Source: an uncultured Bifidobacterium sp. (GTDB taxonomy: Bacteria; Verrucomicrobiota; Verrucomicrobiia; Limisphaerales; JADLHS01). Taken from it: a stretch of DNA of 40,877 bases. Below, one piece after another: positions 660 to 31,959 of this stretch. The DNA lies in the NCBI GenBank assembly GCA_964355895.1, contig CAYHFK010000002.1:1-40877 (forward strand), in the 5' to 3' direction. The notes under the pieces were generated by a model that worked only from the letters and a program-made list of their open reading frames with translations, was not told the DNA's origin and ran no database searches. The position numbers and the translations under genes are program-made. Within the stretch, counting starts at the first letter, position 1; every line of letters begins with the position of its first letter.

Positions 660-2204
660 TCAACTGCGGTTCGCTGTGGCCTTTTTGAGCCGACGAGCTT
701 TATCAAGCAACATTGGCTGACTCATTGACTTGAGAGGGTTAAGGCCGACTTCATCCAAAACGGACTGGGGGATTTCAAGTTGGTCGAGTTGTCTTGGCTC
801 AGTTTTCAATGCCCCGCCACCGTAACTTTTAGAAACGAAGCCCAAATTCGCCAGCGTGTCTGGATGATTGAGTGCCCGCCACAGTTTTTTTGCTCCAGCT
901 TGTGTTGTGTCCCACGGATACACACAAAGAAAGCCGGTCAGCGGGACGACGTTTGCCTCATTCAAAATGAACCGGCAGTCGCGGCGACCGAGATACGCGA
1001 ATAGGATCGGCGGTGGTGTGCGCTTCTCCATCTTATACCAAGGTCGGCGGGTCTTGATTAATGACTTTTCCGGCAGTCCTGCTTGCTCGCCGCTTTTCAA
1101 ATAAGTCTGCAACTGTGTTGGAAGTTGTTCGTTGGACTCGTCCGCAAGGTTAAGCAACCAAGTGGCGCGGCCTACTGCTTCGAGACGATCTAAATCTTCT
1201 ATCTCAAGTCGGGCGCCAGGACAATCGCGTGTTCTTCCGATGGCTCGTCGGAAAAATCTCTCCGGCAGTTTGTGTGATCGAAGTTGTTCGCGAGTGAGAA
1301 AAAAGAAGTCATTGTCGCCGGTGGCAATTCCGCGCAGGACTCTGGCAAAATGGAAAAGCGGAGTGCCGAAATTATCTTGGGCGCGCGGCGGACGAGACAA
1401 TCCTGTTTTCAGTGCTTCAGGCAGTTTACGGCGGTGAGCATTGACAGCGCTTGAGGCTTTCCGCCCGGCCAGCGCAGCCGAGATTGCTTCGCCATCTCTC
1501 TCGCACACGCGCAGCCAAAGAAAATCTTCCAAGGGTTTCGCTTTGGTGAAAAGGAACACCATCGCGTTGGTGTCCACGGTTGGAAATGGCGCGGCTTCAT
1601 CGGCGAAAGTCATAGCGGCAATCAGCCGGTATTGCTGACAGATTCGATTCCAAAACACAAATGACGAAATTCCCTCGCAAACATCGGCAGGCAGAAGAAA
1701 CGCCAGCCGCCCGCCTGGTGCAAGCTGCGTTAGACATTTAAGCAGGAAAAAAACGTGCAAACCAACACGCCCATCGAGAGAAAACCCCAGATGGCTTTGT
1801 GCTAGTTGTTTCAATTCAAGTTTTTGATCTTGAGTCAGACGATGGTGGCGGATGTAAGGCGGATTGGAAACGATGGCTGGAAACTTTTCCGGCAAAGAGG
1901 TGCTGATGAAATCAGCGATCTGCACATGATGGAAGTCAGCAAGCTTCAAACCGAGTTTCCAGCCGTCGGCAAACGCGTTCGGGTGAAGTTCAAAGCCATG
2001 AAACTCGCCTGTAAATCCTCCTTCACGCGCCGCCGCGAAAAAAGTTCCCGGACCGACTGCGGGATCAAAGAGAACTTCAGGACGGTCTTGTGTTACCCAG
2101 CCAGCCATGACTTTTGCCAGCCACAGCGGCGTCCAGAACTGTCCTTTCACCCGCAACGCTTCTCGTTCGTCTCCGCTGGCAGGAAGTTTTTGTAAAGTTC
2201 GCAT
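660..2204 (-). CDS. N6-adenine (amino) DNA methyltransferase, Eco57I/TaqI-like, of a Type II R-M pair
   Basis: ORF 660..2213. An ATG lies at 2204 and the track start at 2213 is TTG. Motifs: GQFWTP near the N-terminus, DPAVGPGTFF (AdoMet motif I) and IVSNPPYIRHH (catalytic NPPY motif IV), followed by a long C-terminal target-recognition-like region. It lies directly downstream of a putative endonuclease on the same strand. Confidence 0.85.
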   Translation of the reverse strand: MRTLQKLPASGDEREALRVKGQFWTPLWLAKVMAGWVTQDRPEVLFDPAVGPGTFFAAAREGGFTGEFHGFELHPNAFADGWKLGLKLADFHHVQIADFISTSLPEKFPAIVSNPPYIRHHRLTQDQKLELKQLAQSHLGFSLDGRVGLHVFFLLKCLTQLAPGGRLAFLLPADVCEGISSFVFWNRICQQYRLIAAMTFADEAAPFPTVDTNAMVFLFTKAKPLEDFLWLRVCERDGEAISAALAGRKASSAVNAHRRKLPEALKTGLSRPPRAQDNFGTPLFHFARVLRGIATGDNDFFFLTREQLRSHKLPERFFRRAIGRTRDCPGARLEIEDLDRLEAVGRATWLLNLADESNEQLPTQLQTYLKSGEQAGLPEKSLIKTRRPWYKMEKRTPPPILFAYLGRRDCRFILNEANVVPLTGFLCVYPWDTTQAGAKKLWRALNHPDTLANLGFVSKSYGGGALKTEPRQLDQLEIPQSVLDEVGLNPLKSMSQPMLLDKARRLKKATANRS

Positions 2205-2215
2205 GGCCAGCAAAA

Positions 2216-3193
2216 CTATTCCCGCTTTGCCGCGAGCAAACTAAGCTGCTCAAGAGATTCAGGCAGCAGCGAGAGGTGTCCTCCGCTGAACGTGACGTAA
2301 GGTAAAATGTGACCATTCTTGTCCTCGACAAAAGCGGGCAGAAGTTTCGGGTCTTCTGTGCTGATGCCGAGCGGATAGCCGTAGTGGTAGTAGTGCTTGT
2401 AGATGGCCTTTTTGGTCGTCGCCCCGCCGGGTGCTTGAAAGGTTTGCACCGTCGCTTCCGTCAGATTTTCTTTAATCAGTTCTTCAGCGCGATCAAATGA
2501 AAGTCCGTAAGCGCGATCGTAAAAAACGTGCCAGATATGAATTGGAACGCCACGAAGGTTTTGCCATTCCATCAGTGGCTGCCGATCTTCCTCTTTGATG
2601 ATGATATTCGGCAGAACCGCGCCCTTCCTCAATCCGGGCTTCCCGCCGAGCCGCCTTTGTGGGCGCAACGGTGTCAGGAAATCTGGCATCTTCGCTCCGC
2701 GCCAAAGGCTGTTTTCACATTCCACTGCAACAATCGCGTCGGTCAAAATAGAGGCAATGCGCGGATCGGTTTCAGGGATAAAAGGCAATTCCGCCAAACC
2801 GCCCGCCGCCAAAACTTTGCCTTCGACTTTCTTTTTGTCAGCACTTAAAAAAATCAGGACGTCGGGGCGCTTTATTTTTCCAAGCCCAGCGGCTTCCAGT
2901 CTTTCAAAATAAAGTTCAAACTCTCGGACGCTGCCGGTTGGTGCTGTACCGCTAGGCCCGTAAGGAATAGCGAAGAACTTACCAGTTTCATTCACGGCTT
3001 CAGTCAACCGATGTTCGCTCCACACGCCCTGCGACCAGCGCATGAGAAAATCACTGCCGCGCAGGCGACGGGGGTTTAGCCAAAAATCAAGCCACGGGAG
3101 GGCGGGGAAATTATGAAGAACGTCCTGTAAATCTTCGCTGCAAACTGTCAGTGCTTTTTCAAATGGATGGTGGGCTTGTTCAAGTTTGCTCAT
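2216..3193 (-). CDS. putative Type II restriction endonuclease (partner of the 660-2204 methyltransferase)
   Basis: A 325-aa ORF with a clean ATG at 3193. Its stop at 2216 is 11 nt before the methyltransferase ATG. It shares the lower GC of the methyltransferase. It contains RPDVLIF...VAVECENS, which can be read as a degenerate PD...(D/E)x(K)-like core. I cannot name a family. The call rests mainly on context. Confidence 0.5.
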   Translation of the reverse strand: MSKLEQAHHPFEKALTVCSEDLQDVLHNFPALPWLDFWLNPRRLRGSDFLMRWSQGVWSEHRLTEAVNETGKFFAIPYGPSGTAPTGSVREFELYFERLEAAGLGKIKRPDVLIFLSADKKKVEGKVLAAGGLAELPFIPETDPRIASILTDAIVAVECENSLWRGAKMPDFLTPLRPQRRLGGKPGLRKGAVLPNIIIKEEDRQPLMEWQNLRGVPIHIWHVFYDRAYGLSFDRAEELIKENLTEATVQTFQAPGGATTKKAIYKHYYHYGYPLGISTEDPKLLPAFVEDKNGHILPYVTFSGGHLSLLPESLEQLSLLAAKRE

Positions 3194-18000: not shown

Positions 18001-18075
<75 letters not shown>

Positions 18076-18430: not shown

Positions 18431-19027
18431 ATGAAACCGTCGCCCCAGCCGCATCCGCAGCCCAAGACGCTCGACGACCTGATCGCCAACGCCGAGCACT
18501 TCGCGGATTTCTGCATGCGCAACTCGGGCAGCGTTACGCCCGCGCTCTTCTTCCTGGGGCCGGACGGCCAGGGCATGTTCTGTCCCGAGAGCCTCAAGGA
18601 CGCCAGCGCCAAAGACGACTTCGCCGACAACGCGCGCCTCGTCTGCATCGCCCACGCCGCGACGGCTTGCGTCATGACGCTCGAATCCTGGATGAAAACC
18701 GCCAAGCCCGGCGAAACCCTCGACATGACGGAAGCGCCATCCGAGGCGTTCGACCGACGCGAAGTCATCGTGCTCATGGGCGAGTCGCAGACCGGCCAGA
18801 GGCAGAAGATCCTGCCCATCATCCGCAGTGGCAACGGCAAGTTCTTCGGCTTCGGCGAACCCGAACTCCCGGAGCTGGACGCGATCAAGGGCCGCTTCAC
18901 GCAGTTGCTCCCGACGAAAGTTCCCGATGCCGCCATGCGTGACCTCGCCAAGGCGATGATGAAGATCAAAGGCGCTGGCCGCGCCACGCAGGGCAGCACA
19001 CGCCGCCTGCCCCGCTCCCGCCGCTGA
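18431..19027 (+). CDS. hypothetical protein (first ORF of the island)
   Basis: ORF 18251..19027, trimmed to the ATG at 18431 (MKPSPQPHPQPKTLDDLIANAEHF...), giving 198 aa. The composition looks coding. I recognise no family. Two other long ORFs overlap it in other frames. Confidence 0.5.
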   Translation: MKPSPQPHPQPKTLDDLIANAEHFADFCMRNSGSVTPALFFLGPDGQGMFCPESLKDASAKDDFADNARLVCIAHAATACVMTLESWMKTAKPGETLDMTEAPSEAFDRREVIVLMGESQTGQRQKILPIIRSGNGKFFGFGEPELPELDAIKGRFTQLLPTKVPDAAMRDLAKAMMKIKGAGRATQGSTRRLPRSRR

Positions 19028-19047
19028 CCGCCCGGCACTTCTTTTTT

Positions 19048-19075
19048 GATGCAAGTTCCCGCGCGAACTTGCATC
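19048..19075. promoter_or_regulatory. perfect 10-bp inverted repeat upstream of the DUF499 ATPase gene
   Basis: The arms are gatgcaagtt (19048-19057) and aacttgcatc (19066-19075), around an 8-nt GC loop. The repeat lies 74 nt before the ATG at 19149. Confidence 0.5.
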
Positions 19076-19148
19076 CTGCGTCACTCGATGAGCGGGCAGA
19101 TTATTGCAACGCTCCCAAAAAATGCTCGGCTCATTCCAATAAATCAGC

Positions 19149-22100
19149 ATGAAAACCGTTCGCGACGCTTGCACGCTCCAGCCCAACGCGCTGTCCGTCA
19201 AACTCAGTGACCAGATCGAGCAACTCGACGAGTTGATCCACGCCGCGGGCAACGGTGAAGTCTTTTTCAAAAGGACTCACATCACGCTGGGTATGCAGGA
19301 CCTCATCACCGAGGGCATCGCCCGCCTCGCCGGTGTTTCCACGCAGGCTATTTTTCATTTGAAGCAGGCCATGGGCGGCGGCAAAACCCATTTGCTCGTT
19401 GGATTCGGGTTGCTGGCCAAGCATCCCGCCCTCCGGAAGGCGTACTGCGGCGGCGACGCCAACTCCCAAATGTTCGGCACCGCTGACGTAGCGGCGTTCA
19501 ATGGCCGCAACAGTCCGCCGCACTTCTTTTGGGGCGAGATCGCCCAGCAACTCGGCAAGGCCGAAGTATTTCAGGAGTTCTGGGCTTCCGGTCCGAAAGC
19601 GCCGGATGAAAAAGCCTGGCTCAAGCTGTTCGATGGCAACGACCCTATCCTCATCCTGTTGGATGAAATGCCGCCTTACTTCGAAGACCTCGCCACTCGC
19701 CCGGTCGGCGCGGGCACCGTGGCCGACATCGCCACCCGGGCCTTCGCCAATCTGCTGACCGCCGCCGGCAAGAAGGCCAACGTCTGCATCGTCGTCTCCG
19801 ACCTTTACGCAGCTTACCAAACTGGCGGTGCCTTGATCATCCGGGCGCTTGACAACGCCAAGCAGGAGCTTGGCCGCGCCGAGCGCAACATCACCCCGGT
19901 TGACCTCGCCGCGAACGAAATCTACGACATCTTACGGAAACGTCTTTTCGAATCCCTTCCCGACCAGGCTGAAATTGACGACATCGCCGATGCTTACGGC
20001 CGGAAACTGGAGGAAGCTTCCAAGTCCAAGGTCGCCAATCGCGGCGCGGAGGCCATCGCCGCCGAGATCGCGGCCACCTACCCATTCCATCCGCGCCTCA
20101 AAAATGTCATCGCCCTCTTCAAGGAAAACGAGCAATTCAAGCAGACCCGCGGCCTCATCGAACTCGTCTCGCGCCTGCTGCGTTCGGTGTGGGATCGCCC
20201 GTCGAACGACGTTTTCCTCATCGGCCCGCAACACTTTGATCTGTCCATCGCCGAGGTGCGGGACAAGCTCACCGAAATCTCCGGCATGCGCGATGTGATC
20301 GCCAAGGACCTCTGGGACGCCCAGAAATCCGCCCACGCGCAGCTCATTGACCTCAGCACCGGCAAGGAAGCCGCCACTCAGGTCGGCTCGCTCCTGCTCA
20401 CCGCCAGCCTCTCCACCGCCGTCAACGCCGTGAAGGGCCTCAAGGAATCCTCCGAGACGGTTGAATGTCTCGTGTCCCCGTTGCGCGAGCCGTCCGAGTT
20501 TCTCGAAGCGTTCCAGCAGCTTGAAGAATCCGCCTGGTATGTTCACCACACCGCGGAGGGCCGTTACTATTTTGATCGGCAGGAGAATCTCACCAAGCTG
20601 CTCCAAAGCCTCGCGCACGACGCCCCGGACAATCAGGTGGACGATCTCATCCGCCATCGCTTGCGCGACATGTTCAAGCCCACGCGTAAAACCGCTTACG
20701 AAGAAGTCCTCCCGTTGCCGAAGCTGGAAGATGTGGCCGACAAGGTTCGCAAAAATCGGGTCCTGCTCATCGTCAGCCCGGACTCCAAAATCCCGCCGGA
20801 GGAAGTGCAAAAGTTTTTCGATGGCCTCAGCCAAAAGAACAACCTCTGCGTCCTCACTGGCGACAAGACCGCGATGGGCAGCGTCGAGAAAGCCGCGCGT
20901 CATGTTTATGCCGGGCAAAAAGCGGATGGTCGCATCCCGCTGGGCCACCCGCAGCGCGAAGATCTCGAAACCAAGCAGCGCACTTACGAACAGGACTTCA
21001 ACTCCACGGTCCTGAACCTGTTCGACAAAGTCCTTTTCCCCATCCATCGGGCTGGCAAAACCCAACCCCAACTCGCTCCCAAACCCCTCGAAACGACCCG
21101 CGACGCCAAGCTGCCTTTCGATGGCGAGGCGCAGGTGGAAAAAACGCTTACCTCGAACCCGCTCAAACTCTACCTGGATGTCGAAAAAGACTTCGACCCC
21201 ATCCGCGATAAAGCCCAGGACCTCCTCTGGCCGGAGAACCAGGACGAGGCCCGCTGGTCTGACGTGGCCGACCGTTACGCCGAGCAGGCCGGAATGCTAT
21301 GGCTGCCGCCCAAGGGACTCGACACACTCAAATCCATCGCCTGCAATCGCGGCCTTTGGGAAGACCTCGGCAACGGCTACGTCACCAAGAAACCCAAGAA
21401 GAAAAAGACCTCCGTCCAGGTCATCGCCGAATCCGAGCCGGACGACGAAGGCAAAGTCCGCCTGCGCGTGAACCCCCAAAATGCCGGCCCGGCCCCGCGC
21501 ATCCATTTTGCCGAGGACGCACCCGTCACCGAGAAAAGCCCGCAACTTAAAGACCAATTCCTTACGACCAAGGCGCTCCGGGTAAGCTTTCTCGTCGTGG
21601 ACCCGTCCAAGCAATACGAAACCGGCGATGTTGTGACCTGGTCGAACAAACTCGTTCTCCGCAACAACCTCAAGGAAAACGGCGGCCAGCGCGCCGTCGA
21701 ACTGCTCGTCGCACCCGTCGGCAAGATTCGCTACACCCTCGACGGCTCCGAGCCACGCGAAGGAGCGCTCTACGACCAGCCGGTCGCAATCGGCGACGGC
21801 GACGTTCTGATGCGCGTCTTTGCCGACGCCAGTGGCGTTGAGGCCAAAGCCCAGTTCAGCTACTCCGCCAAGGGCAAGAAAGGCGTGCAAGTGGACGACG
21901 TGAAACCCGGTCGCCTCATTTCCCGCACCGGGCGCAAGCTCGACTCGCGGGCCAAGACCTTTGAAGCCCTCAAGCAAGCCACTGAGAAATCCGTCACGTT
22001 CGAGAACGTCACTGTCAACGTCGGCACCGGCACCCAGGTTGCCACGTTCTTCGTCGGCGAGGTCGCGGTGAACGCCGCCTTCATCGAAGCCATCCTCAAA

Positions 22101-22238
22101 ACCACGCTGGAAAAGTTCGCCCCCGACACGCCCGTCACGATGACCTTCCGCAAGGCCCACTTCAATTCCGGCCACGACCTCAAGGATTTTGCCGAAAAGC
22201 TCGGTCTGGAATTGAACCCCGGTGACGTTGAGCAATGA
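19149..22238 (+). CDS. DUF499-type (BrxC/PglY-like) P-loop ATPase
   Basis: A 1029-aa ORF. Motifs: Walker A LKQAMGGGKTHLL (GGGKT at 19374-19388) and Walker B-like ILILLDEMPPYF. The overall size and N-terminal layout (FFKRTHITLGMQDLI) are typical of DUF499 proteins. Confidence 0.8.
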   Translation: MKTVRDACTLQPNALSVKLSDQIEQLDELIHAAGNGEVFFKRTHITLGMQDLITEGIARLAGVSTQAIFHLKQAMGGGKTHLLVGFGLLAKHPALRKAYCGGDANSQMFGTADVAAFNGRNSPPHFFWGEIAQQLGKAEVFQEFWASGPKAPDEKAWLKLFDGNDPILILLDEMPPYFEDLATRPVGAGTVADIATRAFANLLTAAGKKANVCIVVSDLYAAYQTGGALIIRALDNAKQELGRAERNITPVDLAANEIYDILRKRLFESLPDQAEIDDIADAYGRKLEEASKSKVANRGAEAIAAEIAATYPFHPRLKNVIALFKENEQFKQTRGLIELVSRLLRSVWDRPSNDVFLIGPQHFDLSIAEVRDKLTEISGMRDVIAKDLWDAQKSAHAQLIDLSTGKEAATQVGSLLLTASLSTAVNAVKGLKESSETVECLVSPLREPSEFLEAFQQLEESAWYVHHTAEGRYYFDRQENLTKLLQSLAHDAPDNQVDDLIRHRLRDMFKPTRKTAYEEVLPLPKLEDVADKVRKNRVLLIVSPDSKIPPEEVQKFFDGLSQKNNLCVLTGDKTAMGSVEKAARHVYAGQKADGRIPLGHPQREDLETKQRTYEQDFNSTVLNLFDKVLFPIHRAGKTQPQLAPKPLETTRDAKLPFDGEAQVEKTLTSNPLKLYLDVEKDFDPIRDKAQDLLWPENQDEARWSDVADRYAEQAGMLWLPPKGLDTLKSIACNRGLWEDLGNGYVTKKPKKKKTSVQVIAESEPDDEGKVRLRVNPQNAGPAPRIHFAEDAPVTEKSPQLKDQFLTTKALRVSFLVVDPSKQYETGDVVTWSNKLVLRNNLKENGGQRAVELLVAPVGKIRYTLDGSEPREGALYDQPVAIGDGDVLMRVFADASGVEAKAQFSYSAKGKKGVQVDDVKPGRLISRTGRKLDSRAKTFEALKQATEKSVTFENVTVNVGTGTQVATFFVGEVAVNAAFIEAILKTTLEKFAPDTPVTMTFRKAHFNSGHDLKDFAEKLGLELNPGDVEQ

Positions 22239-22291
22239 ACCGCTGCCAATATCACTATCAATTTACGCCGGTCATTCCGGCGAGCCGCTGT

Positions 22292-22317
22292 CCCTCGCCC
22301 GTTGGAACGGGAGAGGG
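22292..22317. repeat. GC-rich hairpin (REP-like) in the ATPase / DUF3780 spacer
   Basis: The sequence is ccctcgcccgt-tgga-acgggagaggg, with 10 of 11 stem positions paired. It is followed by ggccggaggccgg. Confidence 0.5.
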
Positions 22318-22388
22318 TGGCCGGAGGCCGGGTGAGGGTCGTCGGGGTAAAACCAATCAATCGGCTCGCCTTCCATTCACCAGCCCGC

Positions 22389-22979
22389 ATGAGTGAGAAA
22401 CTCCAATTCGTGGATTTCGGCGCGCCCGATAAATTCGGCGCGCACCTGTTTCGCGTCGAAATCCCGGCGGTGCGCACCGAACCCGTCCGCATCGTCGAGG
22501 ATTTCGGCTATCGCGGCCTCGAAGGCGGCATTCCCCGCGATGAAGACCGCGCGATCCTCATCCGCCCCGTTTGGTCCGGCATCGCGGACATCGCCCGGCG
22601 CGAGTTCAATGACCGGCTCAAAACCGCCAAAGTTACTACCGGCCGCTGGAAGAGTGGCACAAATTTGGTGGACCGCTTGCTCGGCAAGGAACTCTGCGTT
22701 CTCGCCTGGGCCGCCGAGCCAGCCAACGCCGACCAGCTTCCGGTAATTTGCAGCAAGTGGGCCGCGCTCCGTCCCGAGGAACGCTGGTGGCTTTTCTCCA
22801 TGACCGTCGCCGAGGCCGGCCTGCCGGAGGACACCCAGCGCGGCTGGCGGCGCGCCCTGTTCCTGGCGCTTTCCGACGGCGAACTTCCGCCCGCCGGCCG
22901 CAAGCGCCGCCGACCGGTCGAGAGTGACCTGTTCAGCCTGCCGTTGTTCGAGGTGGAAAGGATGAAGGCCAAAGCATGA
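22389..22979 (+). CDS. DUF3780-like protein
   Basis: ORF 22302..22979, trimmed to the ATG at 22389 (196 aa). The blocks REFNDRLK...LLGKELCVLAWAAE...LRPEERWWLFSMTVAEAG...RGWRRALFLAL match my memory of DUF3780. This has not been verified by a search. Confidence 0.65.
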   Translation: MSEKLQFVDFGAPDKFGAHLFRVEIPAVRTEPVRIVEDFGYRGLEGGIPRDEDRAILIRPVWSGIADIARREFNDRLKTAKVTTGRWKSGTNLVDRLLGKELCVLAWAAEPANADQLPVICSKWAALRPEERWWLFSMTVAEAGLPEDTQRGWRRALFLALSDGELPPAGRKRRRPVESDLFSLPLFEVERMKAKA

Positions 22980-24172
22980 AGGCCATGAAGAACGCGAAGG
23001 AGGCAACGGTGATAACCTCGCCGGAATACCGGCTGTTTATTGAGCATCTAAAGACACGCGTGATCTCCGCCCGCATCTCGGCGGCGCGGGCCATGAATCG
23101 CGAGGGCATCCTGCTCTACTGGGACATTGGGCGCGGCATTGCTGAGAAGCAGCGGGTTCTCGGTTGGGGAGAATCCGTGGTGGAGATGGTTTCGGCGGAC
23201 TTGCGGCGGGCGTTTCCGGGCCTGCGCGGATTCTCCGCAAACAATCTGTGGCTGATGCGCCAGTTCTTTTCGGAGTATTCCGCCGCCGAATTTCTTGAAC
23301 ACCTTGTTCAAGAGATGGAAAAGGAAAGGCGGAAAATTCCGCGACAGCCTGTCGCAGACTGGGTGTTGCCCGATCTCTCAAGCAAGTCCACCCATCCGTC
23401 CGCAATTCTTGAACAGCTTGTTCAAGAATTGCTGCCCGCCGTCCCTTGGGGGCATCACGTCGAGATTGTCAAGAAGGTCAAAGCCCCCGCCGCCCGCCTC
23501 TACTACCTCCGCGCCACGGCCGGCTTCGGCTGGACGCGCCACGTCCTCCTCAACCAGATCAAGGCCGGAGCGTATGAGCGGGCCGTGACGGAGAAGAAAT
23601 CCCACAACTTCCCGCTCGCCCTGCCCGAAAACCTCGCCGAGCAGGCGGACGAGATGCTCAAAAGCTCCTACAACCTCGAATTCCTTGGCCTCCAGGGCGC
23701 GGTCAAGGAGCGCGAACTTGAAGACCGGCTGATCTCCCGTCTGCAGGCCTTTCTCCTCGAACTCGGCTATGGCTTCTGCTTTGTCGGCCGCCAATACCGG
23801 CTCACTCTCGGCCAGAAGGAGTATTTCATTGATCTGCTTTTCTATCACCGGTTCCTCCGGGCGCTCGTCGCGTTCGATCTCAAGGTCGGCCCGTTCGAGC
23901 CGGAGTTCGCCGGCAAGATGGATTTCTACCTCAATCTGCTCAATGACAAGCAACGCGCCCCGGACGACCAACCCTCCATCGGTATCATCCTCTGCGCGGA
24001 AAAGGACGACGTGGAAGTCGAATACGCCCTGCGCTCCAAGAGCAATCCCATCGGCGTGGCCGTCTATCAACTCCAGTCGAAACTCCCGGCGGACCTGAAG
24101 GGAAAACTGCCGACGGCCAAACAGCTTGCTGACGTCGTGCGAACTGTGCTTCCAGAACGGAGCGCCCCATGA
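22976..24172 (+). CDS. DUF1016/YhcG-family PD-(D/E)xK nuclease
   Basis: A 398-aa ORF. The N-terminal DUF1016_N-like blocks are NREGILLYWDIGRGI and FSANNLWLMRQFF. The C-terminal nuclease core is ELGYGFCFVGRQYRL...YFIDLLFYHRFLRALVAFDLKVG. It has ATGA overlaps with both neighbours (22976-22979 and 24169-24172). Confidence 0.85.
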   Translation: MKAMKNAKEATVITSPEYRLFIEHLKTRVISARISAARAMNREGILLYWDIGRGIAEKQRVLGWGESVVEMVSADLRRAFPGLRGFSANNLWLMRQFFSEYSAAEFLEHLVQEMEKERRKIPRQPVADWVLPDLSSKSTHPSAILEQLVQELLPAVPWGHHVEIVKKVKAPAARLYYLRATAGFGWTRHVLLNQIKAGAYERAVTEKKSHNFPLALPENLAEQADEMLKSSYNLEFLGLQGAVKERELEDRLISRLQAFLLELGYGFCFVGRQYRLTLGQKEYFIDLLFYHRFLRALVAFDLKVGPFEPEFAGKMDFYLNLLNDKQRAPDDQPSIGIILCAEKDDVEVEYALRSKSNPIGVAVYQLQSKLPADLKGKLPTAKQLADVVRTVLPERSAP

Positions 24173-27100
24173 CTACTTCAGCCTTCAGCCTTCAGCCTTT
24201 ATCCTTGCGCGACGCCCCCGCGCTCATCGAGCGGCTCCTGCCCGTCCAGAAACTCTCCGCCGAGGCTTACAAGGAGCAGATGGCGGGCAGTGGCAAGACG
24301 CTGACCGCGCTCGGTTCCTATTGGAAAGGCCGAAAGCCGCTCATCTTGAACAAAGCTTGTATCCTTGGCTGCCTTCTCCCAGCGACCGATAATCCCAAGC
24401 GCGACCTTGAGATTTTCGAGAAACTTATGGCGATGGACGATGAATCCTTCGTTGCCCGCTGGCCCCGCCGTGCCAAACCCCGCGAAATTCTCGCCACCCT
24501 GAGCATCGCCCGCATCGCCGATTACTTCGTTTCCGACCCGCCGATGCTCCTGCCGTCGTCGGCACCGGTGGATTGGTCGAGGCCAGAGTTGGAAAATGTG
24601 AAAGTCCAGTGGCGCGATGACATCACAGAGTTGGAGCGTCGCCATCTTGAAGCGCAGATGCTCCCCAAGGCGACCTATCGTGAGCGAGTGGATGAGGCAA
24701 AGCGCTCCGAGGAAATTATGGACACGATGCACACCCATATCTGGGAAGCTGTCAATACACACCTCGGCACAGACGCGCAGTCGTTCCCAGAGTTGGTGGA
24801 ACAGCTTGGCATGATGCGTTTCGGCCACCGTCCTCGCGTGGCCGACACCTTCTGCGGCTCCGGTCAGATTCCTTTCGAGGCCGCTCGGCTCGGCTGCGAT
24901 GTGTACGCTTCTGATCTGAATCCAGTCGCCTGCATGTTGACGTGGGCGGCAATGAACATTGTCGGTGGTTCAGCGGAGAGCCGCGGCCTCTTAAAAGCGG
25001 AGCAGATGCAGTTGGTGCGACGCGTTCAACAAGACCTTGAAGGCTTGAATGTCGAGAGTGATGGAGCGGGCTGGCAGGCCAAGGCTTACCTCTACTGCGT
25101 GGAGGCCCGTTGCCCGCAGAGCGGCTGGCTGGTGCCCTTGATTCCGAGTCTCGTCATTACCCGGCCTAGAAAAGGCGAAGGCGGCTTCGTCGTCGCCCAA
25201 CTCCATCCCGACGTCAAGTCCAAGCGTTACGACATCGTCATCAAGGTCGAGGCCACGCTCACAGAGGTAAAGAGTGCGGATGCGGGCACAGTTAGATCAG
25301 ACGGTAAGGGGCAAGAGCCCTACATGGTCCACATGGTCGATGGCACGGAGTATAGAACCAAGATTTCCACACTGCGGGGCGACTATCGCGGAGAAGATGG
25401 CCGCAATCTAAACAAACTCCGGTTGTGGGAAAAGGAGGATTTCAAACCCAAAGCCACGGATGTTTTTCAAGAGCGCCTTTACGCCGTACAATGGATGCGT
25501 CAGAAGCCAGGGAAAAGGACTTTCGATTATGAGTTCCGAGCCGTCACGGCCGAAGATCTCGAGCGAGAGCGCATCGTCGAGGATTTCGTCGGAACACACC
25601 TAGCGGATTGGCAGGCCAAGGGCTGGGTGCCGGACATGCGGATTGAAGCCGGGGCCAAGACAGACGAACCCATCCGCACTCGCGGTTGGTCGCACTGGCA
25701 CCACCTTTTCACTCCGCGTCAGCTTTTGTTGGCTGGACTGTTGAAGAAACACATAACCGCCAAGACGGCTCTCGGAGTGGCTCAGGTGCTGAATTGGAAT
25801 AGCAAGCTGTCGCGCTGGAATCCAGGCAGCGGTGGTGGCGGTTCAGTTCAAGACACTTTCTACAATCAAGCGCTTAATGCCTTTTTTAATCATGGCTGTC
25901 GCGCCTCTCGCAACGCGCTTTCCTTGATTGAACAGGAAGCGTTTTCTTTTCCGATCGCCGATGCCACCTCAATAAAGATCGCGAATCAAGAGGCAACTAA
26001 TTTCGACGCCTCAGTCGATCTTATCGTGACCGATCCACCTTATGGCGATGCGGTGTGTTATGATGAGATTCTCGATTTTTTTATTGCGTGGCTTCGGAAG
26101 AACCCACCGAATGAGTTCGCCGCTTGGGTCTGGGATAGCCGGCGCTCCCTTGCAATCAAAGGCGAAGATGAAGATTTCAGGCGCGGTATGGTGGCCGCCT
26201 ACAAGCGAATGGCCGAATGCATGCCGGACAACGGCATTCAGGTCATCATGTTCACGCACCAATCGGAGAGCATTTGGGCGGACATGGCGAATATCGTTTG
26301 GGCTTCCGGCCTGCAAGTAACTGCGGCGTGGTATGTCGTCACAGAATCGGACAGCGCACTCCGCGACGGCAGCAACGTCAAAGGCACCGTTCTCCTCGTC
26401 TGCCGCAAGCGTCGCGGCACGCACAAAACCACTCGCGACGACCTTGCGTGGGAAATTCAGGAGGAAGTTGAAAAGCAAATCCGCGACCTCACCGGTCTGA
26501 ATCAGGAAGCCAAGGGCCTTTACAGCGACGAAAACGTTTTTGAAGACGCCGACATCCAGATGGCCGGCTACGCCGCCGCACTTCGCGTGCTCACCCGCTA
26601 CGCCGTCATTGATGGTCGCGAGATGTCCGCAGAAGCCATCCGCCCCCGCGTAAAAGGTGAAACTACTTTCGTGGACGGTCTCATCGCTTTCGCCGTGGAC
26701 ACCGCCAACCAGTGCCTCGTCCCGCAAGGCATCCCGAATGCACACTGGAAGCAATACACCGGCGCAGAAAGGTTTTATCTCAAGCTGCTCGATCTCGAAG
26801 CCAAGGGCCTCAAGACATTGGACAACTACCAGAACTTTGCCAAGGCGTTCAAAGTCCGGGATTTTCGCGCCCTCATGGGCAGCCAACGCGCCAACGAAGC
26901 CCGGCTCCGCAGCGCCGTCGAGTTCGGCAAAAACGAAATGAGCGAAGGCTCGGAACTCCACCAATCCGTCCTCCGCGCCGTCCTCTACGCCATCATGGAA
27001 CTGGCCGGCAACCTGGACGGCAATGACGTTCTCGCCCATCTCACGCTCAACGTGCCGGACTATTATTCCAACCAAACCCAGCGCGAGCGCGTCATCGAAC

Positions 27101-27201
27101 TCGCCGACTACCTCGCCAAAAAACTCGAAACCCTCCGCCCCGACGAAGCCAGCGCCGCCCGCGTCCTGCGCGAGATGGTAAAAAACCAACGGCTGGGATA
27201 A
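24169..27201 (+). CDS. DUF1156-type DNA methyltransferase (exocyclic-amino, DPPY)
   Basis: A 1010-aa ORF with a divergent DUF1156-like N-terminus (LIERLLPVQKLSAEAYKEQ...SYWKGRKPL). Motif I is DTFCGSGQIPFEAARLGCDVYASDLNP (FCGSG at 24850-24864). Motif IV is LIVTDPPYGD (DPPY at 26032-26043). There is about 390 aa between the two motifs, including CVEARCP. Confidence 0.8.
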   Translation: MTTSAFSLQPLSLRDAPALIERLLPVQKLSAEAYKEQMAGSGKTLTALGSYWKGRKPLILNKACILGCLLPATDNPKRDLEIFEKLMAMDDESFVARWPRRAKPREILATLSIARIADYFVSDPPMLLPSSAPVDWSRPELENVKVQWRDDITELERRHLEAQMLPKATYRERVDEAKRSEEIMDTMHTHIWEAVNTHLGTDAQSFPELVEQLGMMRFGHRPRVADTFCGSGQIPFEAARLGCDVYASDLNPVACMLTWAAMNIVGGSAESRGLLKAEQMQLVRRVQQDLEGLNVESDGAGWQAKAYLYCVEARCPQSGWLVPLIPSLVITRPRKGEGGFVVAQLHPDVKSKRYDIVIKVEATLTEVKSADAGTVRSDGKGQEPYMVHMVDGTEYRTKISTLRGDYRGEDGRNLNKLRLWEKEDFKPKATDVFQERLYAVQWMRQKPGKRTFDYEFRAVTAEDLERERIVEDFVGTHLADWQAKGWVPDMRIEAGAKTDEPIRTRGWSHWHHLFTPRQLLLAGLLKKHITAKTALGVAQVLNWNSKLSRWNPGSGGGGSVQDTFYNQALNAFFNHGCRASRNALSLIEQEAFSFPIADATSIKIANQEATNFDASVDLIVTDPPYGDAVCYDEILDFFIAWLRKNPPNEFAAWVWDSRRSLAIKGEDEDFRRGMVAAYKRMAECMPDNGIQVIMFTHQSESIWADMANIVWASGLQVTAAWYVVTESDSALRDGSNVKGTVLLVCRKRRGTHKTTRDDLAWEIQEEVEKQIRDLTGLNQEAKGLYSDENVFEDADIQMAGYAAALRVLTRYAVIDGREMSAEAIRPRVKGETTFVDGLIAFAVDTANQCLVPQGIPNAHWKQYTGAERFYLKLLDLEAKGLKTLDNYQNFAKAFKVRDFRALMGSQRANEARLRSAVEFGKNEMSEGSELHQSVLRAVLYAIMELAGNLDGNDVLAHLTLNVPDYYSNQTQRERVIELADYLAKKLETLRPDEASAARVLREMVKNQRLG

Positions 27202-27213
27202 CCTGAAGCAAGC

Positions 27214-29001
27214 TTGAGCGGACCTTTGCCAACACCGACACCCGAGGAACTTCTTCGCTGGACCACCGCGAAGGAAGGCCAGTTCCTTGAGCGAAAGTCA
27301 GCCCAGCACAGCGAACCAGGCAAGACAAAGCCGCGCAAAGTTGCCGACGTGGCGATGGATGTTGCCGAAACTCTAGCGGCAATGGCCAATGCAGATGGCG
27401 GCGAGTTGGTCGTAGGTATTGAAAACGAGGGCGCTGTGACCGGGGTTCGCCAGCCGGAAGACCGTCTGTCAGTAATCTTGAGCGCGCCGCGCAGCAAGAA
27501 CTACGTCAATCCGCCGTTGCCGGTCCGCTCCCGAGAGCTACGCACCGCCGACGGCCACCGCCTATTCCACTTCGAGGTTGATTGGAGCCCTGAGGTGCAT
27601 CAATTGGCGGGCAGCCGATACTTGTTGCGCGTCAACGACCACAACTCACCTTTCCCAGCGGAGCAGATCGCCGCGCTTAAGTCCGCTAAAACTCAAGGGC
27701 TCTGGGAGCGGACCTATCCGCCCGGCGCCGTGCTGGCGGATTTGGATATGGATTTGATTGCGTCGTTAGCGCCTGCCGCATGGGCGGGCCGCAATCCTGA
27801 AGCCGTTCTCCGCGACCGTGGTTTGCTCGCCGGCCGGAACGGACACAGCGTGCCTTCAAACGCCGCCCTGTTGCTGTTCGCCAAATCACCGGCCCGGTGG
27901 CACCCCCGATGTGGCATTGATTTCGTTCGCTGGCAAGGCGACGAGCGCAAACAGGGGGCTGAGTTCAACGCGGTTAAACGTTTCCCCCTCGAAGGCCCGT
28001 TAAGCACGCTGATTCGCAAGGCTTACGACGCCATTCTCCCGATTCTCCCAGAACGCACCAAGCTCCAGGACCTGCTCTTCAATGAGAAATTGGTTTACCC
28101 GGTTTTTGCCTGGCAGGAAGCGGTCGTCAACGCGGTCGCCCACCGCGATTACGGCATCCAAGGCGCGAGCATTGAGGTTTGGTTGTTTGATGACCGGCTC
28201 GAAATCCGCAGTCCGGGGCTGCCACCCGCGCCCGTTACCCTGGATGCGCTCGCACGCCGCGAGCATATTCATGTGTCGCGCAATCCATACATCGTCCGCA
28301 CTCTGGTCGAGCTTGGCTACATGCGGGAAGCCGGCGAAGGTATTCCGCGCATTTTCGATGAGATGGAACGGGCCGGCTTTTATCCGCCAACGCTATCCAT
28401 CGTCGGCGGAATGAGTTTCCAAGTCACCTTGCGCAATCAACCGCTTTACGACCAAGCGACGCTCAAGTGGTTGCATCAGTATGATGCTCTCGAATTAACC
28501 TTGGATCAGAAACGCATTCTCGCTTCCGCCCATGCTCACATGGATCAATTCACGAGTCGCGACGTTCAAGGGTTGCTGGACAAAGACATCTACGGAGCCT
28601 CGAACCTGATCAAAGATTTAATCCGCAAAGGAGCGGTGCGCTCCTCGGCGAAAGGCAGTCGCATTTATCAGGTGATTGAACCGCTAGCGGCCCAAGCCGA
28701 CACGCCGGCTGACCTCGCCAAAATGCTGCCTTTGCTAAATAAGCGCGGCCACATTCGCAACCAGGATCTTCGCAAGGAGTTGCACCTTAAGCGCATCACC
28801 GCTACCCGGAAATTACAGGATTGGGTTGCTTCTGGCTGGCTGGACGCCCCCAAAGCCAGCCGCGGAATCGGGGCGGTTTATCCCCCCGGCCCAAAGCTAT
28901 TGCATCACTCTCCCATTGCATCATCCAGCCCTGAGACTGATGCAATGAGCCGTGAGGCTGATGCAATCCAGCCCCCGGCGCCGAAGAAGCCAAGTGCTTG
29001 A
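27214..29001 (+). CDS. AlbA_2 (Schlafen-like) / HATPase_c_4 / winged-helix protein (COG2865-type)
   Basis: A 595-aa ORF with a TTG start. The AlbA_2-like N-terminus is EGQFLERKSA...ELVVGIENEGAVTGV. The HATPase-like block is WQEAVVNAVAHRDYGIQGASIEVWLFDDRLEIRSPG...REAGEGIPRIF. Two wHTH-like segments occupy the C-terminal third. Confidence 0.8.
   Translation: MSGPLPTPTPEELLRWTTAKEGQFLERKSAQHSEPGKTKPRKVADVAMDVAETLAAMANADGGELVVGIENEGAVTGVRQPEDRLSVILSAPRSKNYVNPPLPVRSRELRTADGHRLFHFEVDWSPEVHQLAGSRYLLRVNDHNSPFPAEQIAALKSAKTQGLWERTYPPGAVLADLDMDLIASLAPAAWAGRNPEAVLRDRGLLAGRNGHSVPSNAALLLFAKSPARWHPRCGIDFVRWQGDERKQGAEFNAVKRFPLEGPLSTLIRKAYDAILPILPERTKLQDLLFNEKLVYPVFAWQEAVVNAVAHRDYGIQGASIEVWLFDDRLEIRSPGLPPAPVTLDALARREHIHVSRNPYIVRTLVELGYMREAGEGIPRIFDEMERAGFYPPTLSIVGGMSFQVTLRNQPLYDQATLKWLHQYDALELTLDQKRILASAHAHMDQFTSRDVQGLLDKDIYGASNLIKDLIRKGAVRSSAKGSRIYQVIEPLAAQADTPADLAKMLPLLNKRGHIRNQDLRKELHLKRITATRKLQDWVASGWLDAPKASRGIGAVYPPGPKLLHHSPIASSSPETDAMSREADAIQPPAPKKPSA
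28899..28967. repeat. nested inverted repeats (ATTGCATCA / TGATGCAAT), copy 1 of a ~50-bp duplicated segment
   Basis: attgcatca occurs at 28899-28907 and 28915-28923. The exact complement tgatgcaat occurs at 28938-28946 and 28959-28967. All four lie inside the last 35 codons of the 27214-29001 gene. Confidence 0.85.
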
Positions 29002-29078
29002 TTCCAAACGATTATGAATTGCCAGCCCAATCGTAACGCGCATGGAAAATCGCATAGCGCCGATTCTATGCTTACTTC

Positions 29079-29156
29079 TATGCGCAAAACACATAACGCC
29101 GCGCATAAAACAGCGGATATGAGCAGCTTATGCGCGCGGCGGATAAAGTCGCGCAT
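29079..29156. promoter_or_regulatory. two ~50-bp-spaced palindromes TATGCGC-N15-GCGCAT(A) upstream of the helicase gene
   Basis: tatgcgc (29079-29085) pairs with gcgcata (29101-29107). tatgcgc (29129-29135) pairs with gcgcat (29151-29156). Further half-sites are gcgcat (29038-29043) and cgcata (29051-29056). The region is locally AT-richer. Confidence 0.5.
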
Positions 29157-29174
29157 TAATGGCGGTCGGCGGCC

Positions 29175-29229
29175 ATTGCATCACTCTCACATTGCATCAT
29201 CAATCATTGAGACTGATTCAATGCAATCC
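29175..29229. repeat. copy 2 of the duplicated ATTGCATCA segment (intergenic)
   Basis: The first 49 nt (29175-29223), attgcatcactctcacattgcatcatcaatcattgagactgattcaatg, match 28899-28947 at 43/49 positions. The copy ends 18 nt before the helicase start. Confidence 0.8.
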
Positions 29230-29246
29230 TAGGACACCAAGACTTC

Positions 29247-31959
29247 TTGAACGCCAACGCAATCAATCGTTTTTCCTCCCGCCGCGAACGGCTTGATCAC
29301 GCGTTTCTGTCCAAAAAGCTCGCGGGGGCAAAATCCTACCGCCGCATTGCAGGTTATTTTCGCAGTTCCATTTTTGAACTCGTCGGCGAGGAAATCGCCG
29401 GCATTGAGAAAGTCCAGATCGTCTGCAACAGCGAACTCGACGCCGCCGACGTAGCCATTTCCCAACACGTACGCGAGACCGCTCTCAAAGAACGCTGGAA
29501 CGAAGCGCCTGCCGAGGTGGAAGCGCTGCTCCACAAGGATCGTTACCGCAAACTCCACGATTTGCTGACCAGCGGCCGGGTCGAAATCCGCGTCGTCCCC
29601 AAGGACCGCGTCTTCATCCACGGCAAGGCCGGCGTCATCGAAGCAGCGGACGGCACCAAGACCTGTTTTATCGGTTCCATCAACGAATCCAAGAGCGCCT
29701 TCGCCCATAATTATGAAATCCTCTGGGAAGACCCTTCGCCCGAAGGCGTCGCTTGGGTGGAGGACGAGTTTGACGCGCTCTGGAAAGATGCCTACCCGTT
29801 GCCCGACGCCATCGTCGAGGAAATCAAACGGGTCGCCGACCGCGTCGAGATTCGTTTCGATGAAGTCCGGCCTGCCGAACTCCCCGGCGCGGCCCTGGCC
29901 GAAACGCCCATCTATCGCGGCGGCGAACAGCTCCAGTCCTGGCAACGGGCGTTCGTCACCATGTTCCTCCAGCACCGCGAGACCTACGGCAAAGCCCGCC
30001 TCCTTCTCGCCGATGAAGTCGGCGTCGGCAAAACGCTGTCGCTGGCCGCGAGCGCCATGATGTCCGCGCTCCTCGCTGACGGCCCGGTTCTCATCCTGTG
30101 CCCCTCGACGCTCACGTTCCAATGGCAGGTTGAGTTGCAAGACCGCCTCGGCATCCCCAGCGCCGTCTGGGCGTCCGGCCAGAAAGTCTGGATTGATCCC
30201 CACGGCCACACCATCAAGACCCGTGGCGCCGAGGACATCACCCGCTGTCCCTTCCGCATCGCCATCGTCTCCACCGGCTTGATCTTTCACCATTCCGACG
30301 AACGGCGACTGCTGCTTGAGAAGCGATTCGGCACGGTCGTCCTGGACGAAGCCCACAAAGCCCGGCGGCGCGGTGGCCTCGGCCCAAACAAGGACGAGTC
30401 GAACAACCTGCTGGACTTCATGCTGGGCATCGGCCCGCACACCAAGAATCTTTTGCTCGGCACCGCCACCCCCATCCAGACCAACGTGCATGAGCTGTGG
30501 GATTTGATGCGCATCCTGAACGCCGGCGCGGATTTCGTCCTGGGCCGCGAAGCCATGAGCCTCTGGGTCAGCTTGCCGCGAGCCTTGCCGATCGTGAAAG
30601 GCGACGAAATCCCGCTCGACGAGCGCGATGCCTGGGAGTGGCTGCGCAACCCGCTTCCGCCCGGCGACGAAGAACCGCTGGTGGCCAACTTGCGCCTCCA
30701 GTTGGGCATTCCTGACAACGCATTCTTTACCGACAAAGGCTTCGGCTCGCTCGAATACTCCGTCCAGCAATCGGTCCTCCAGACCTTGGCGCCCGGCTTT
30801 TATCAGCAACACAACCCTATTGTCCGCCACACCGTCCTGCGTCGTCGTCAAACGTTGGAAGATGCGGGCCTGCTCGAACGGGTCGCCGTCGAAGTGCATC
30901 CCGTGCCCGACGCCCCCTCGACCGCCTACCCCGGCGTGCATTTTGACGGGCTCGGGTTGCTAACCAACCATCCGTTCGACCTCGCCTACCAAGCCGCCGA
31001 AGATTTCACCACCGCTTTGCAACAGCGCACCAAAGCCGCCGGCTTCATGAAGTCGCTCCTTGCTCCAGCGCATCTGCTCCAGCTTCGCTTCCGGTCGTAG
31101 CACGGCCACGAAGATGTTGGGTCGCGAACTACTTGAGGATGAAGAACAGGCCGCCTTGCTGCTCGATCAGCTCAGTTCGCTCACTCCCACCGAGGCGGGC
31201 CACCTTCGCACGATTGTCGAAGAATTGTCCCGCCCCGAGGCGCACGATCCCAAACTCGCCGCCGTTCGCTACTTCCTGAACGAACATCGCACCGAGGGCA
31301 AAACGTGGTTGGAACACGGTTGCATTATCTTCAGCCAGTATTACGACACCGCTTTCTGGATCGCCTCAGAACTGGCAAAGACGCTGCCTGCCGAGCCAGT
31401 TGCCGTCTATGCCGGCACGGGCAAGAGCGGCATGTTTCGCGGCGAGGAGTTTGCTTCCATCGAACGTGAGGAAATCAAGAAGGCCGTCAAAACACGCAGC
31501 GTGCGGCTCGTGGTCGCCACCGACGCCGCGTGCGAGGGGTTGAACCTGCAAACGCTCGGCACGCTCATCAACGTGGACTTGCCGTGGAATCCGTCACGGC
31601 TTGAGCAGCGGCTCGGCCGCATCAAACGCTTCGGCCAGGCACGCCGTTCCGTGGACATGCTCAACCTCGTCTATCACGACACCCGGGACGAGGATGTGTA
31701 TCGGGTAATCTCCCGGCGCTTGAAAGACAAGTTCGACATCTTCGGCGGCCTGCCGGACACGATCGAAGACGACTGGATTGCAACGGAAGAACGCCTGGAA
31801 GGAATGATGGATGAATACATCCATCTCCGTCAGAAAGCCCGCGACGTGTTCGAACTCCGCTACAAAGAAACCATTGATCCCGACCAGAACCGCTGGGAAC
31901 TCTGCTCGCGCGTGCTGGCGCGGAAAGATGTCGTAGAGAAATTATCGGAATCGTGGTGA
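29247..31959 (+). pseudogene. PLD-family nuclease / SNF2 helicase fusion, reading frame interrupted once (ORFs 29247..31100 and 31060..31959)
   Basis: The start is a TTG. The HKD motif is FIHGKAGVIEAADGTKTCFIGSINES (His codon at 29619). The SNF2 motifs are LLADEVGVGKTL (30018-30032), VVLDEAHKARR (30345-30356) and LLGTATPIQTNVHELW. The second ORF, in a different frame, carries the C-lobe: IIFSQY, LVVATDAACEGLNLQ and DLPWNPSRLEQRLGRIKRFGQ. The two join as ...FMKSL|LLQRICSSFASGR if one nt near 31056-31061 is skipped. Confidence 0.75.

Follow-up and report, generated by a model that had tools for sequence, protein, structure and literature searches.

The window analyzed here is a 40,877-nt stretch of contig CAYHFK010000002.1, and the subject of this study is a block within it (positions 18431 to 31959) whose main part, from 19149 to 31959, is a candidate anti-phage operon. 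Its genes encode, in order, an ATPase of the DUF499 type, a DUF3780 protein, a YhcG-type nuclease, a methyltransferase with a DUF1156 N terminus, a Schlafen-type protein, and an HKD (PLD) nuclease fused to an SNF2 helicase, the last split over two open reading frames (ORFs) (Table 1). The genes are closely packed, with ATGA overlaps at 22976 to 22979 and 24169 to 24172 and a 12-nt gap at 27202 to 27213; in its longest form, the DUF3780 ORF begins at a TTG codon at 22302. An original prediction, made from the letters of the sequence, had listed these ORFs, overlaps, motifs, and repeats and a break in the helicase frame, all of which were reproduced by the ORF list, direct reading of the sequence, and motif search.

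To identify the encoded proteins, we used the Pfam, PADLOC, and NCBIfam profile libraries, the last as equivalogs with curated cutoffs. Each of the four core proteins has dedicated models (NCBIfam NF042961 to NF042964, named “anti-phage-associated,” and PADLOC PDLC02189 to PDLC02193). The DUF499, DUF3780, and methyltransferase proteins exceed their NCBIfam cutoffs, and the N-terminal half of the helicase falls below the 1,100-bit cutoff of NF042964 (800 bits, positions 2 to 602 of 895) only because its gene is split. The DUF499 ATPase matched PDLC02192 (1,589 bits, positions 1 to 1021 of 1022) and NF042962 (1,482 bits versus a cutoff of 1,200) over their full length and scored 73 bits with Pfam. 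It carries a Walker A motif (GGGKTH, residue 76), a Walker B motif (LLDEM, residue 170), and Fn3-type matches at residues 849 to 893 (Fn3_assoc, residues 856 to 892) in a C-terminal FnIII-like region, and is presumed to be the sensor and scaffold of the system. In the methyltransferase, motif I (FCGSG, residue 228) and motif IV (DPPY, residue 622) flank a variable insert. The N-terminal half of the helicase matched PDLC02193 with 946 bits (positions 2 to 606 of 905), and the C-terminal half supplied the remaining positions. A PLDc_2 domain (residues 27 to 179) with a single HKD-type motif, H125-G-K...GSIN, in which Glu replaces the usual Asp, precedes the SNF2 motifs GVGKT (residue 259), DEAH (residue 367), and TAT (residue 406); QRLGR follows in the C-terminal half. 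The helicase start codon is TTG, since the ATG of relatives (MNRFSS...) reads ATC in the window; one related locus (L008; related loci and contigs carry L numbers) likewise has an upstream TTG. These searches bear out the assignments made in the original prediction: a 1029-aa P-loop ATPase of the DUF499 type, a 196-aa DUF3780 protein, a 1010-aa methyltransferase with a DUF1156-like N terminus and both catalytic motifs, and an HKD nuclease fused to a full SNF2 motif set.

To determine how broadly this arrangement is conserved, we searched GTDB genomes with the DUF3780 protein as an anchor and collected 80 loci, to which the window proteins were then mapped. The order DUF499, DUF3780, slot A, methyltransferase, slot B, helicase was invariant in 80/80 loci wherever the contig showed it, where slots A and B denote the two positions at which additional genes may be embedded; as the original prediction had proposed checking, such genes recur at both. 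The operon core is co-directional across genomes of many phyla. The closest relatives are metagenome-assembled genomes (MAGs) of Verrucomicrobiota, with core proteins 84 to 93% identical (85 to 93% for DUF3780). The window itself probably stems from a Verrucomicrobiota bacterium, as the cluster of its downstream Uup protein at ≥90% identity contains a protein assigned to that phylum. Relatives at 60 to 85% identity occur in Nitrospirota, Proteobacteria, Planctomycetota, Cyanobacteria, Chloroflexota, Firmicutes, and Methanosarcina, which points to horizontal spread.

Table 1. Features of the block and its left neighbor in the window. ORF, open reading frame; wHTH, winged helix-turn-helix.
Feature	Position	Strand	Basis
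tRNA-Thr (anticodon CGT), left neighbor, context only	18001-18075	+	ARAGORN; Rfam RF00005, 74.7 bits
Same-strand ORFs	18431-19027, 19149-22238, 22389-22979, 22976-24172, 24169-27201, 27214-29001, 29247-31100, 31060-31959	+	ORF list
198-aa protein, conserved unannotated family	18431-19027	+	Homologue search
Perfect palindrome GATGCAAGTT-N8-AACTTGCATC	19046-19075		Sequence reading; spacer before DUF499 gene
DUF499 AAA+ ATPase, 1029 aa	19149-22238	+	PF04465, PDLC02192, NF042962
150-nt insertion with GGGAGAGGG-type palindrome, DUF499 stop to DUF3780 start	22239-22388		Sequence comparison
Standalone DUF3780 protein, 196 aa	22389-22979	+	PF12635, 234 bits; NF042961, 230 bits (cutoff 200); PDLC02191
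Slot A cassette: DUF1016_N + YhcG_C PD-(D/E)xK nuclease, 398 aa	22976-24172	+	PF17761, PF06250, PADLOC candidate PDC-S02
DUF1156 N6-adenine-type methyltransferase, 1010 aa	24169-27201	+	PF06634; PDLC02189, 1,451 bits; NF042963, 1,297 bits (cutoff 1,000)
Slot B cassette: Schlafen (AlbA_2) nuclease + HisK-like HATPase_c_4 + wHTH, 591-595 aa	27214-29001	+	PF04326, PF13749, weak MarR match
Junction element, copy 1	28896-28970	+	Two direct ATTGCAYCAsyCTC and two inverted GAGrCTGrTGCAAT sites
Array of GCGCATA(A)/TATGCGC motifs, both orientations	29037-29160		Repeat families D3, D4, I14
Junction element, copy 2	29172-29235	+	nhmmer, E = 3.9e-16; ends 12 nt before helicase start codon
HKD (PLD) nuclease + SNF2 helicase N-lobe, 617 aa as it stands	29247-31100	+	PDLC02193, NF042964, PLDc_2, SNF2
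One-base insertion splitting the helicase gene	31059-31062	+	DNA alignment with nine relatives
SNF2 helicase C-lobe + C-terminal region, 299 aa from TTG	31060-31959	+	PDLC02193, 511 bits, positions 606-905; PF00271

The operon core also departs locally from its relatives. Residues 250 to 650 of the methyltransferase (window positions 24919 to 26118) are only 32 to 70% identical to Verrucomicrobiota relatives, whereas residues 1 to 250 and 650 to 1010 are 85 to 100% identical; the version of the central segment found in the window recurs in L023 with 78 to 92% identity. A divergent segment between conserved flanks is the pattern expected for target-recognition domain swapping, which would diversify the methylation motif. 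We conclude that the methyltransferase is a mosaic with a swappable, predicted target-recognition insert. The window further holds an insertion of 150 nt between the DUF499 gene and the DUF3780 gene, a pair with an ATGA overlap in L004 and with adjoining ends in most other relatives. This insertion is specific to the locus and, as read from the comparison with relatives, uncouples the two genes.

The gene set corresponds to a class that has already been described. Rakesh & Krishnan (Nucleic Acids Res 2026; PMC12839542) define DUF499-centered BREX (bacteriophage exclusion)-related (BR) systems, of which Type-2 occurs in 1,120 taxa. Of these taxa, 98% have DUF3780 as a standalone protein, 83% have an HKD domain joined to the helicase, and 53% have FnIII-like domains in the ATPase; the methyltransferase combines a DUF1156 N terminus with a nested target-recognition insert. 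The window contains an ATPase of the DUF499 clade, a standalone DUF3780 protein (the Type-2 BR signature), a DUF1156 methyltransferase with an insert, and an HKD-SNF2 helicase (interrupted by a +1 frameshift) in the conserved order, with the DUF3780 gene between the ATPase and methyltransferase genes. The likeness to the published type and to the dedicated models thus covers all four core proteins and their order, and it extends to the FnIII-like domains before the ATPase C terminus, the N-terminal HKD domain of the helicase, and auxiliary PD-(D/E)xK and Schlafen-HisK-wHTH (winged helix-turn-helix) genes inside the locus. The window differs from the type in its frameshifted effector gene, in the 150-nt split between DUF499 and DUF3780, and in a conserved noncoding element and motif array before the helicase gene, an element that goes unmentioned in the sections of PMC12839542 consulted. 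The original prediction had equated the DUF499 protein with the BrxC/PglY component of BREX; it is BrxC-like, but the same paper places the DUF499 clades apart from BrxC/PglY. The broader proposal of a methylation-linked, multicomponent anti-phage system is supported by the dedicated models and by the literature match, although its novelty had been overrated, since NCBIfam, PADLOC, and PMC12839542 already catalogue the system as a predicted family.

The published Type-2 model assigns self-marking to the methyltransferase, the effector role to the HKD-SNF2 protein, and the roles of sensor and reader to DUF499 and DUF3780 (PMC12839542), in agreement with the division of labor suggested in the original prediction. 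Applied to the window, the variable insert of the methyltransferase would determine the motif at which host DNA is marked. Unmarked or foreign DNA would be detected by the ATPase, possibly with DUF3780 as reader, and the translocating HKD-SNF2 protein would then cut such DNA, giving a mechanism that overall would resemble restriction-modification, as inferred for Type-2 BR.

We compared the locus with other known systems. Hma, or Type-1 BR (Payne et al.; Liu et al. 2024, PMC11232893), shares a DUF499 ATPase, a DUF1156 methyltransferase, an SNF2 helicase-nuclease, and frequent embedded genes with the window. However, the Hma helicase has a Tudor domain at its N terminus, in place of the HKD domain of the window's helicase, and a PD-(D/E)xK domain (DUF3883/NOV_C) at its C terminus, and Hma lacks the DUF3780 gene that the window has. 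Hma models matched the window proteins weakly (HmaC, 178 bits; HmaB, 101 bits; HmaA, 29 to 87 bits), and membership in this type was rejected on the N-terminal HKD helicase, the presence of DUF3780, and the HmaA scores. BREX type 3 (BrxC, BrxXI/PglXI, BrxHII) likewise combines a BrxC-like AAA+ ATPase and an SNF2 helicase with an N6-methyltransferase whose target-recognition domain is nested, and BREX also separates self from nonself by methylation. The presumed effector of the window is, in contrast, an HKD nuclease fused to a helicase rather than PglZ. Among the eight block ORFs and the downstream ABC-F gene, PglZ, BrxL, BrxA, and BrxB had no match in Pfam or PADLOC, and canonical BREX (types 1 to 6) was set aside because PglZ and BrxL or equivalent core genes were unmatched. 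DISARM (defense island system associated with restriction-modification), which is defined by DrmA (a DUF1998 helicase) and DrmB together with DrmC as a separate PLD protein, was also rejected: the DrmD and DrmA matches were weak (at most 112 bits) and reflected a generic SNF2 core, and no DUF1998 protein was found with PADLOC.

Both slots of the window are occupied. The slot A protein matched PDC-S02 models with up to 423 bits and retains the motif D286...D301-x-K303, which confirms the predicted DUF1016/YhcG PD-(D/E)xK nuclease. The slot B protein, whose start is ambiguous (TTG at 27214 or a gene-caller start giving 591 aa), was correctly described as an AlbA_2/Schlafen-like HATPase-wHTH protein; its HTH gave a weak MarR-type match. 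Its catalytic motif Ex4ExK is intact (E21-x4-E26-x-K28), and by the published motif definition, Ex4(E/D)xK, it fits the pSlfn-HisKinase-HTH class (bioRxiv 10.1101/2025.07.24.666596). It is a probable tRNase. Across the loci, slot A, between DUF3780 and the methyltransferase, is filled in 16/75 assessable cases, seven of them with YhcG/DUF1016 genes (L004, L005, L008, L009, L014, L015, and L016; L005 has a tandem pair) and others with Uma2, PIN, or AAA_14/DUF4143 genes. Slot B, between the methyltransferase and the helicase, is filled in 26/56. Schlafen-HATPase_c_4 genes account for 12, DarT with a Macro-domain protein (DarTG-like) for 3 (L041, L045, and L081), and GmrSD for 2 (L004 and L043), with Uma2, PIN, AbiJ, DUF3800, and AbiEii among the other inserts. 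The six-gene layout of the window recurs in L005, L008, L009, and L014. Accessory proteins are often just 26 to 39% identical where core proteins are 80 to 93% identical, and we therefore take the cassettes to be exchanged, not co-inherited.

The two embedded genes had been regarded as unusual features of an “expanded variant.” Their embedding in the operon stands, but the same families recur at both slots and are widespread: PD-(D/E)xK nucleases, and proteins that join a Schlafen RNase to a minimal histidine kinase plus a wHTH, lie in or beside BREX and BR loci, the latter proteins in at least 1,017 taxa (PMC12839542), and 62.7% of Hma loci hold embedded genes, from which PDC candidates were built (Payne et al., bioRxiv 10.1101/2024.01.29.577857). 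PrrC in EcoprrI, BrxU (GmrSD) in BREX, and the PADLOC HEC/PDC candidates are likewise single-gene nucleases in the same orientation within a modification-based system. Judged by gene content, then, the expanded variant is a recurrent and already described architecture, not an oddity.

A repeat-rich region at 28899 to 29246, which the original prediction had read as an internal control region, separates the slot B cassette from the helicase gene. The repeats are real and conserved, consisting of two copies of a junction element on either side of a motif array, but no sigma-70 promoter or intrinsic terminator in 28900 to 29250 rose above shuffle expectation, the only stems being weak ones in the GCGCATA array. 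The element copies contain a 52-nt direct repeat (28896 to 28947 and 29172 to 29223, 87% identity) and nested inverted repeats, and the Schlafen-type ORF continues through copy 1, which makes up its final ~35 codons; the C-terminal 126 aa of the Schlafen-type protein gave a single match in a protein search. A hidden Markov model of the element detected it in 4/80 genome loci. The order element-array-element is found in the window and L014 (16149 to 16477) and array-element in L008 (14000 to 14185) and L009 (16470 to 16655), all three relatives having comparable arrays. A metagenome scan added 10 contigs (L084 to L093), of which four are Type-2 BR loci; elsewhere the element lies 3′ of genes for RhuM, an HD-domain protein, an AAA_15/AAA_21 ATPase, and unknown proteins, in unrelated host contexts. 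Searches of plasmids and viral contigs gave no matches.

Alignment of 15 element copies supported nested and crossing pairings of the four sites equally (91% versus 90% paired; covariation, 0.146 versus 0.143). The covariation therefore reflects four like sites of one recognition sequence, not one fold, and a specific RNA hairpin was rejected. L087 has TATGCA in all four sites; its adjacent array has, by eye, GCGGAT-type motifs. Rfam matched the tRNA only, so the region showed no known RNA family. We also considered a dif/Xer reading of the GCGCATAA array, starting from the XerC arm of Escherichia coli dif, and rejected it from the sequence because no XerD-type arm lies at the right spacing. 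The pattern favors a protein-binding site, which could be an operator or a site for a recombinase, over any single RNA fold. The perfect palindrome before the DUF499 gene, which L004 retains in part, shares its TTGCATC half-site with the junction element, making a shared operator possible.

One explanation of the element and array (28896 to 29235) is that they form a site for site-specific recombination or cassette exchange rather than a transcriptional or translational control region. Such a site would account for the position of the element 3′ of unrelated cassettes (Schlafen-type, RhuM, HD-domain, and AAA_15 ATPase genes) and for its four sites covarying as one recognition sequence. It would also fit L089, which has only the element and a 120-nt flank in common with L084 and L093, and L085, in which the element adjoins, with nothing in between, the C-terminal half of a gene homologous to the 198-aa ORF, so that the junction falls in the middle of that gene. 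However, no recombinase gene lies nearby, and the element is confined to the few loci and contigs listed above. It also adjoins the next start codon, ending 6 to 28 nt before it in several loci, a position that an operator or a structure in the 5′ untranslated region fits equally well, and ordinary homologous recombination in conserved flanks would explain cassette swapping without a special site. We consider an exchange site unlikely on this balance. A wider proposal, equally doubtful, is that the four-site element and array form a dedicated cis-site of defense cassettes, either a recombination handle or an operator through which the wHTH of a cassette would gate the toxic effector downstream. 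In its recombination-handle version, Schlafen-HisK, RhuM, HD-domain, and OLD-type ATPase genes would be exchanged between host operons.

The frame break in the helicase gene, which had been noted in the original prediction, is accounted for by one extra base (AAG TCG CTC CTT G CTC CAG CGC) outside any homopolymer, and the frame is lost after codon 605. Gene callers begin the second half at an internal ATG, giving 281 aa. All Illumina-type relatives have the helicase in one uninterrupted frame, and in relatives the two parts have a codon in common. L001 and L002, which are other metagenome assemblies, have the gene split in the same way (617 + 281 aa); the proteins encoded on these and on L003, which ends before the break, are all 100% identical to those of the window. 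In both halves, dN/dS against four relatives is 0.05 to 0.07, the lowest in the operon, and further stop codons are absent. Strong purifying selection without another stop codon indicates that the lesion is recent. We conclude that the frame break is real and that a recent single-base insertion splits the predicted effector gene. With its effector gene split, the core system is probably restriction-dead in this genome, and the methyltransferase and the two accessory genes stay intact.

An alternative is that the system is fully functional, either because both helicase halves are made and reassemble or because a +1 shift of the ribosome at CUU-G (from CUU to UUG, both of them Leu codons) yields the full-length protein. 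The halves are intact ORFs under strong purifying selection, the second has a TTG or ATG start available, and the break lies between the lobes, with the HKD and RecA1 on one side and RecA2 and the C-terminal region on the other. Moreover, two long-read MAGs, L019 (~15458) and L068 (~15467), carry an additional base in this same stretch of ~12 nt. Their helicase genes, however, hold several other frame breaks typical of long-read assembly errors, so we take the extra base there as probable assembly noise; it may reflect coincidence, a hotspot, or a systematic error. At a dS of 0.7 to 0.9 to the nearest relatives, dN/dS is blind to a recent loss of constraint. The putative slip site is followed by no slow or stop codon and contains no homopolymer, and together with the single frame of close relatives this makes a programmed frameshift unlikely. 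A fully functional system is accordingly quite improbable. That the native gene is intact, the break being a minor allele or an artefact of sequencing or assembly, is more improbable still: coverage of L001 and L002 is low (7.8x and 4.3x by their contig names) and their neighboring accession numbers suggest one project, but the same insertion, outside a homopolymer, appears in three separate assemblies.

Taken together, these results suggest, with a probability that we put at about 0.8, that the block from 19149 to 31959 is a Type-2 BR operon with a restriction-modification-like mechanism, two accessory genes in its slots, a recently split effector, and a core that is probably restriction-dead. 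Several points weigh against this interpretation. The literature searched, where DUF3780 occurs in a single distinct paper, yielded no experimental report on any Type-2 BR system, and the sole experimental support found there comes from the sister type, in which the HmaA helicase-nuclease of Hma defends against T4 (PMC11232893). The assignments of defense and methylation and the roles of DUF499 and DUF3780 all rest on inference. In addition, the helicase might still be active in two pieces, the assemblies that have the frameshift, three in all, may share one study, so that an intact allele could coexist, and the accessory genes could act independently or be wired into the core system.

Specific to this locus are the recent inactivating frameshift in the effector gene, the uncoupling insertion, and the conserved junction element. 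Given the wide distribution of Type-2 BR (PMC12839542), a dissected example helps in the choice of constructs, and the present one offers an intact methyltransferase, a located and repairable effector lesion, mapped boundaries of the variable insert, and defined insertion slots. The locus would also represent a natural “methylase on, restriction off” state, which bears on the decay of toxic restriction-modification-like systems. The junction element at cassette boundaries is a more general lead.

The 198-aa ORF that precedes the operon had been listed in the original prediction as a hypothetical ORF ahead of the six components. Its position was correct, but the region upstream of DUF499 is not conserved among 54 loci, only L004 having the ORF there as well, and we rejected it as a system component. 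The protein belongs to a family of 755 homologues (~197 aa, 65 to 91% identity, many invariant residues). It had no Pfam, NCBIfam, or PADLOC match, and its AlphaFold2 model (mean pLDDT, 66.7) had no fold match in the PDB (best Foldseek E value, 0.11). Homologues elsewhere lie at the boundary between housekeeping and variable or defense genes at different chromosomal sites (L004, L085, and L094 to L099). One stands directly before a Type-1 BR/Hma locus (L094), one before a DEAD-MZB/SNF2 island next to a cyclic oligonucleotide-based antiphage signaling system (CBASS; the context of P0097), and others follow rnpA-yidC-jag (L096 to L098). A palindrome similar to the GGGAGAGGG-type one also lies upstream of the homologue in L094. 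Payne et al. (bioRxiv 10.1101/2024.01.29.577857) explicitly leave open how and why defense genes embed in other defense systems; if the proposal of a dedicated cis-site were true, that site and this island-edge protein would give a first mechanistic handle on how they do so.

The window flanks consist of housekeeping genes, with the ABC-F gene (Uup) downstream of the block. As had been predicted despite the tRNA-flanking position, neither an integrase nor an att repeat was found: no integrase family in Pfam or NCBIfam matched the nine ORFs scanned (the eight of the block and the ABC-F gene), and the best downstream repeat of the tRNA 3′ half scored 16 to 20, versus 20 to 22 in control regions. 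An island integrated at the tRNA was therefore rejected, and no compositional break was found. In relatives with 85 to 89% identical Uup, compared as possible empty sites, gene order differs, no tRNA lies nearby, and synteny around uup is not conserved. Adjacency to a tRNA gene does recur, in that five relatives have a same-strand tRNA gene of another specificity upstream of DUF499 (L012, Cys; L028, Asn; L038, Arg; L039, Phe; L081, His/Arg). Far from the block, the minus strand of the window encodes, at 660 to 3193, an Eco57I-like N6-methyltransferase together with an AccI-family endonuclease. They form a Type II restriction-modification pair of their own, and the G+C content of this stretch is lower (0.52).

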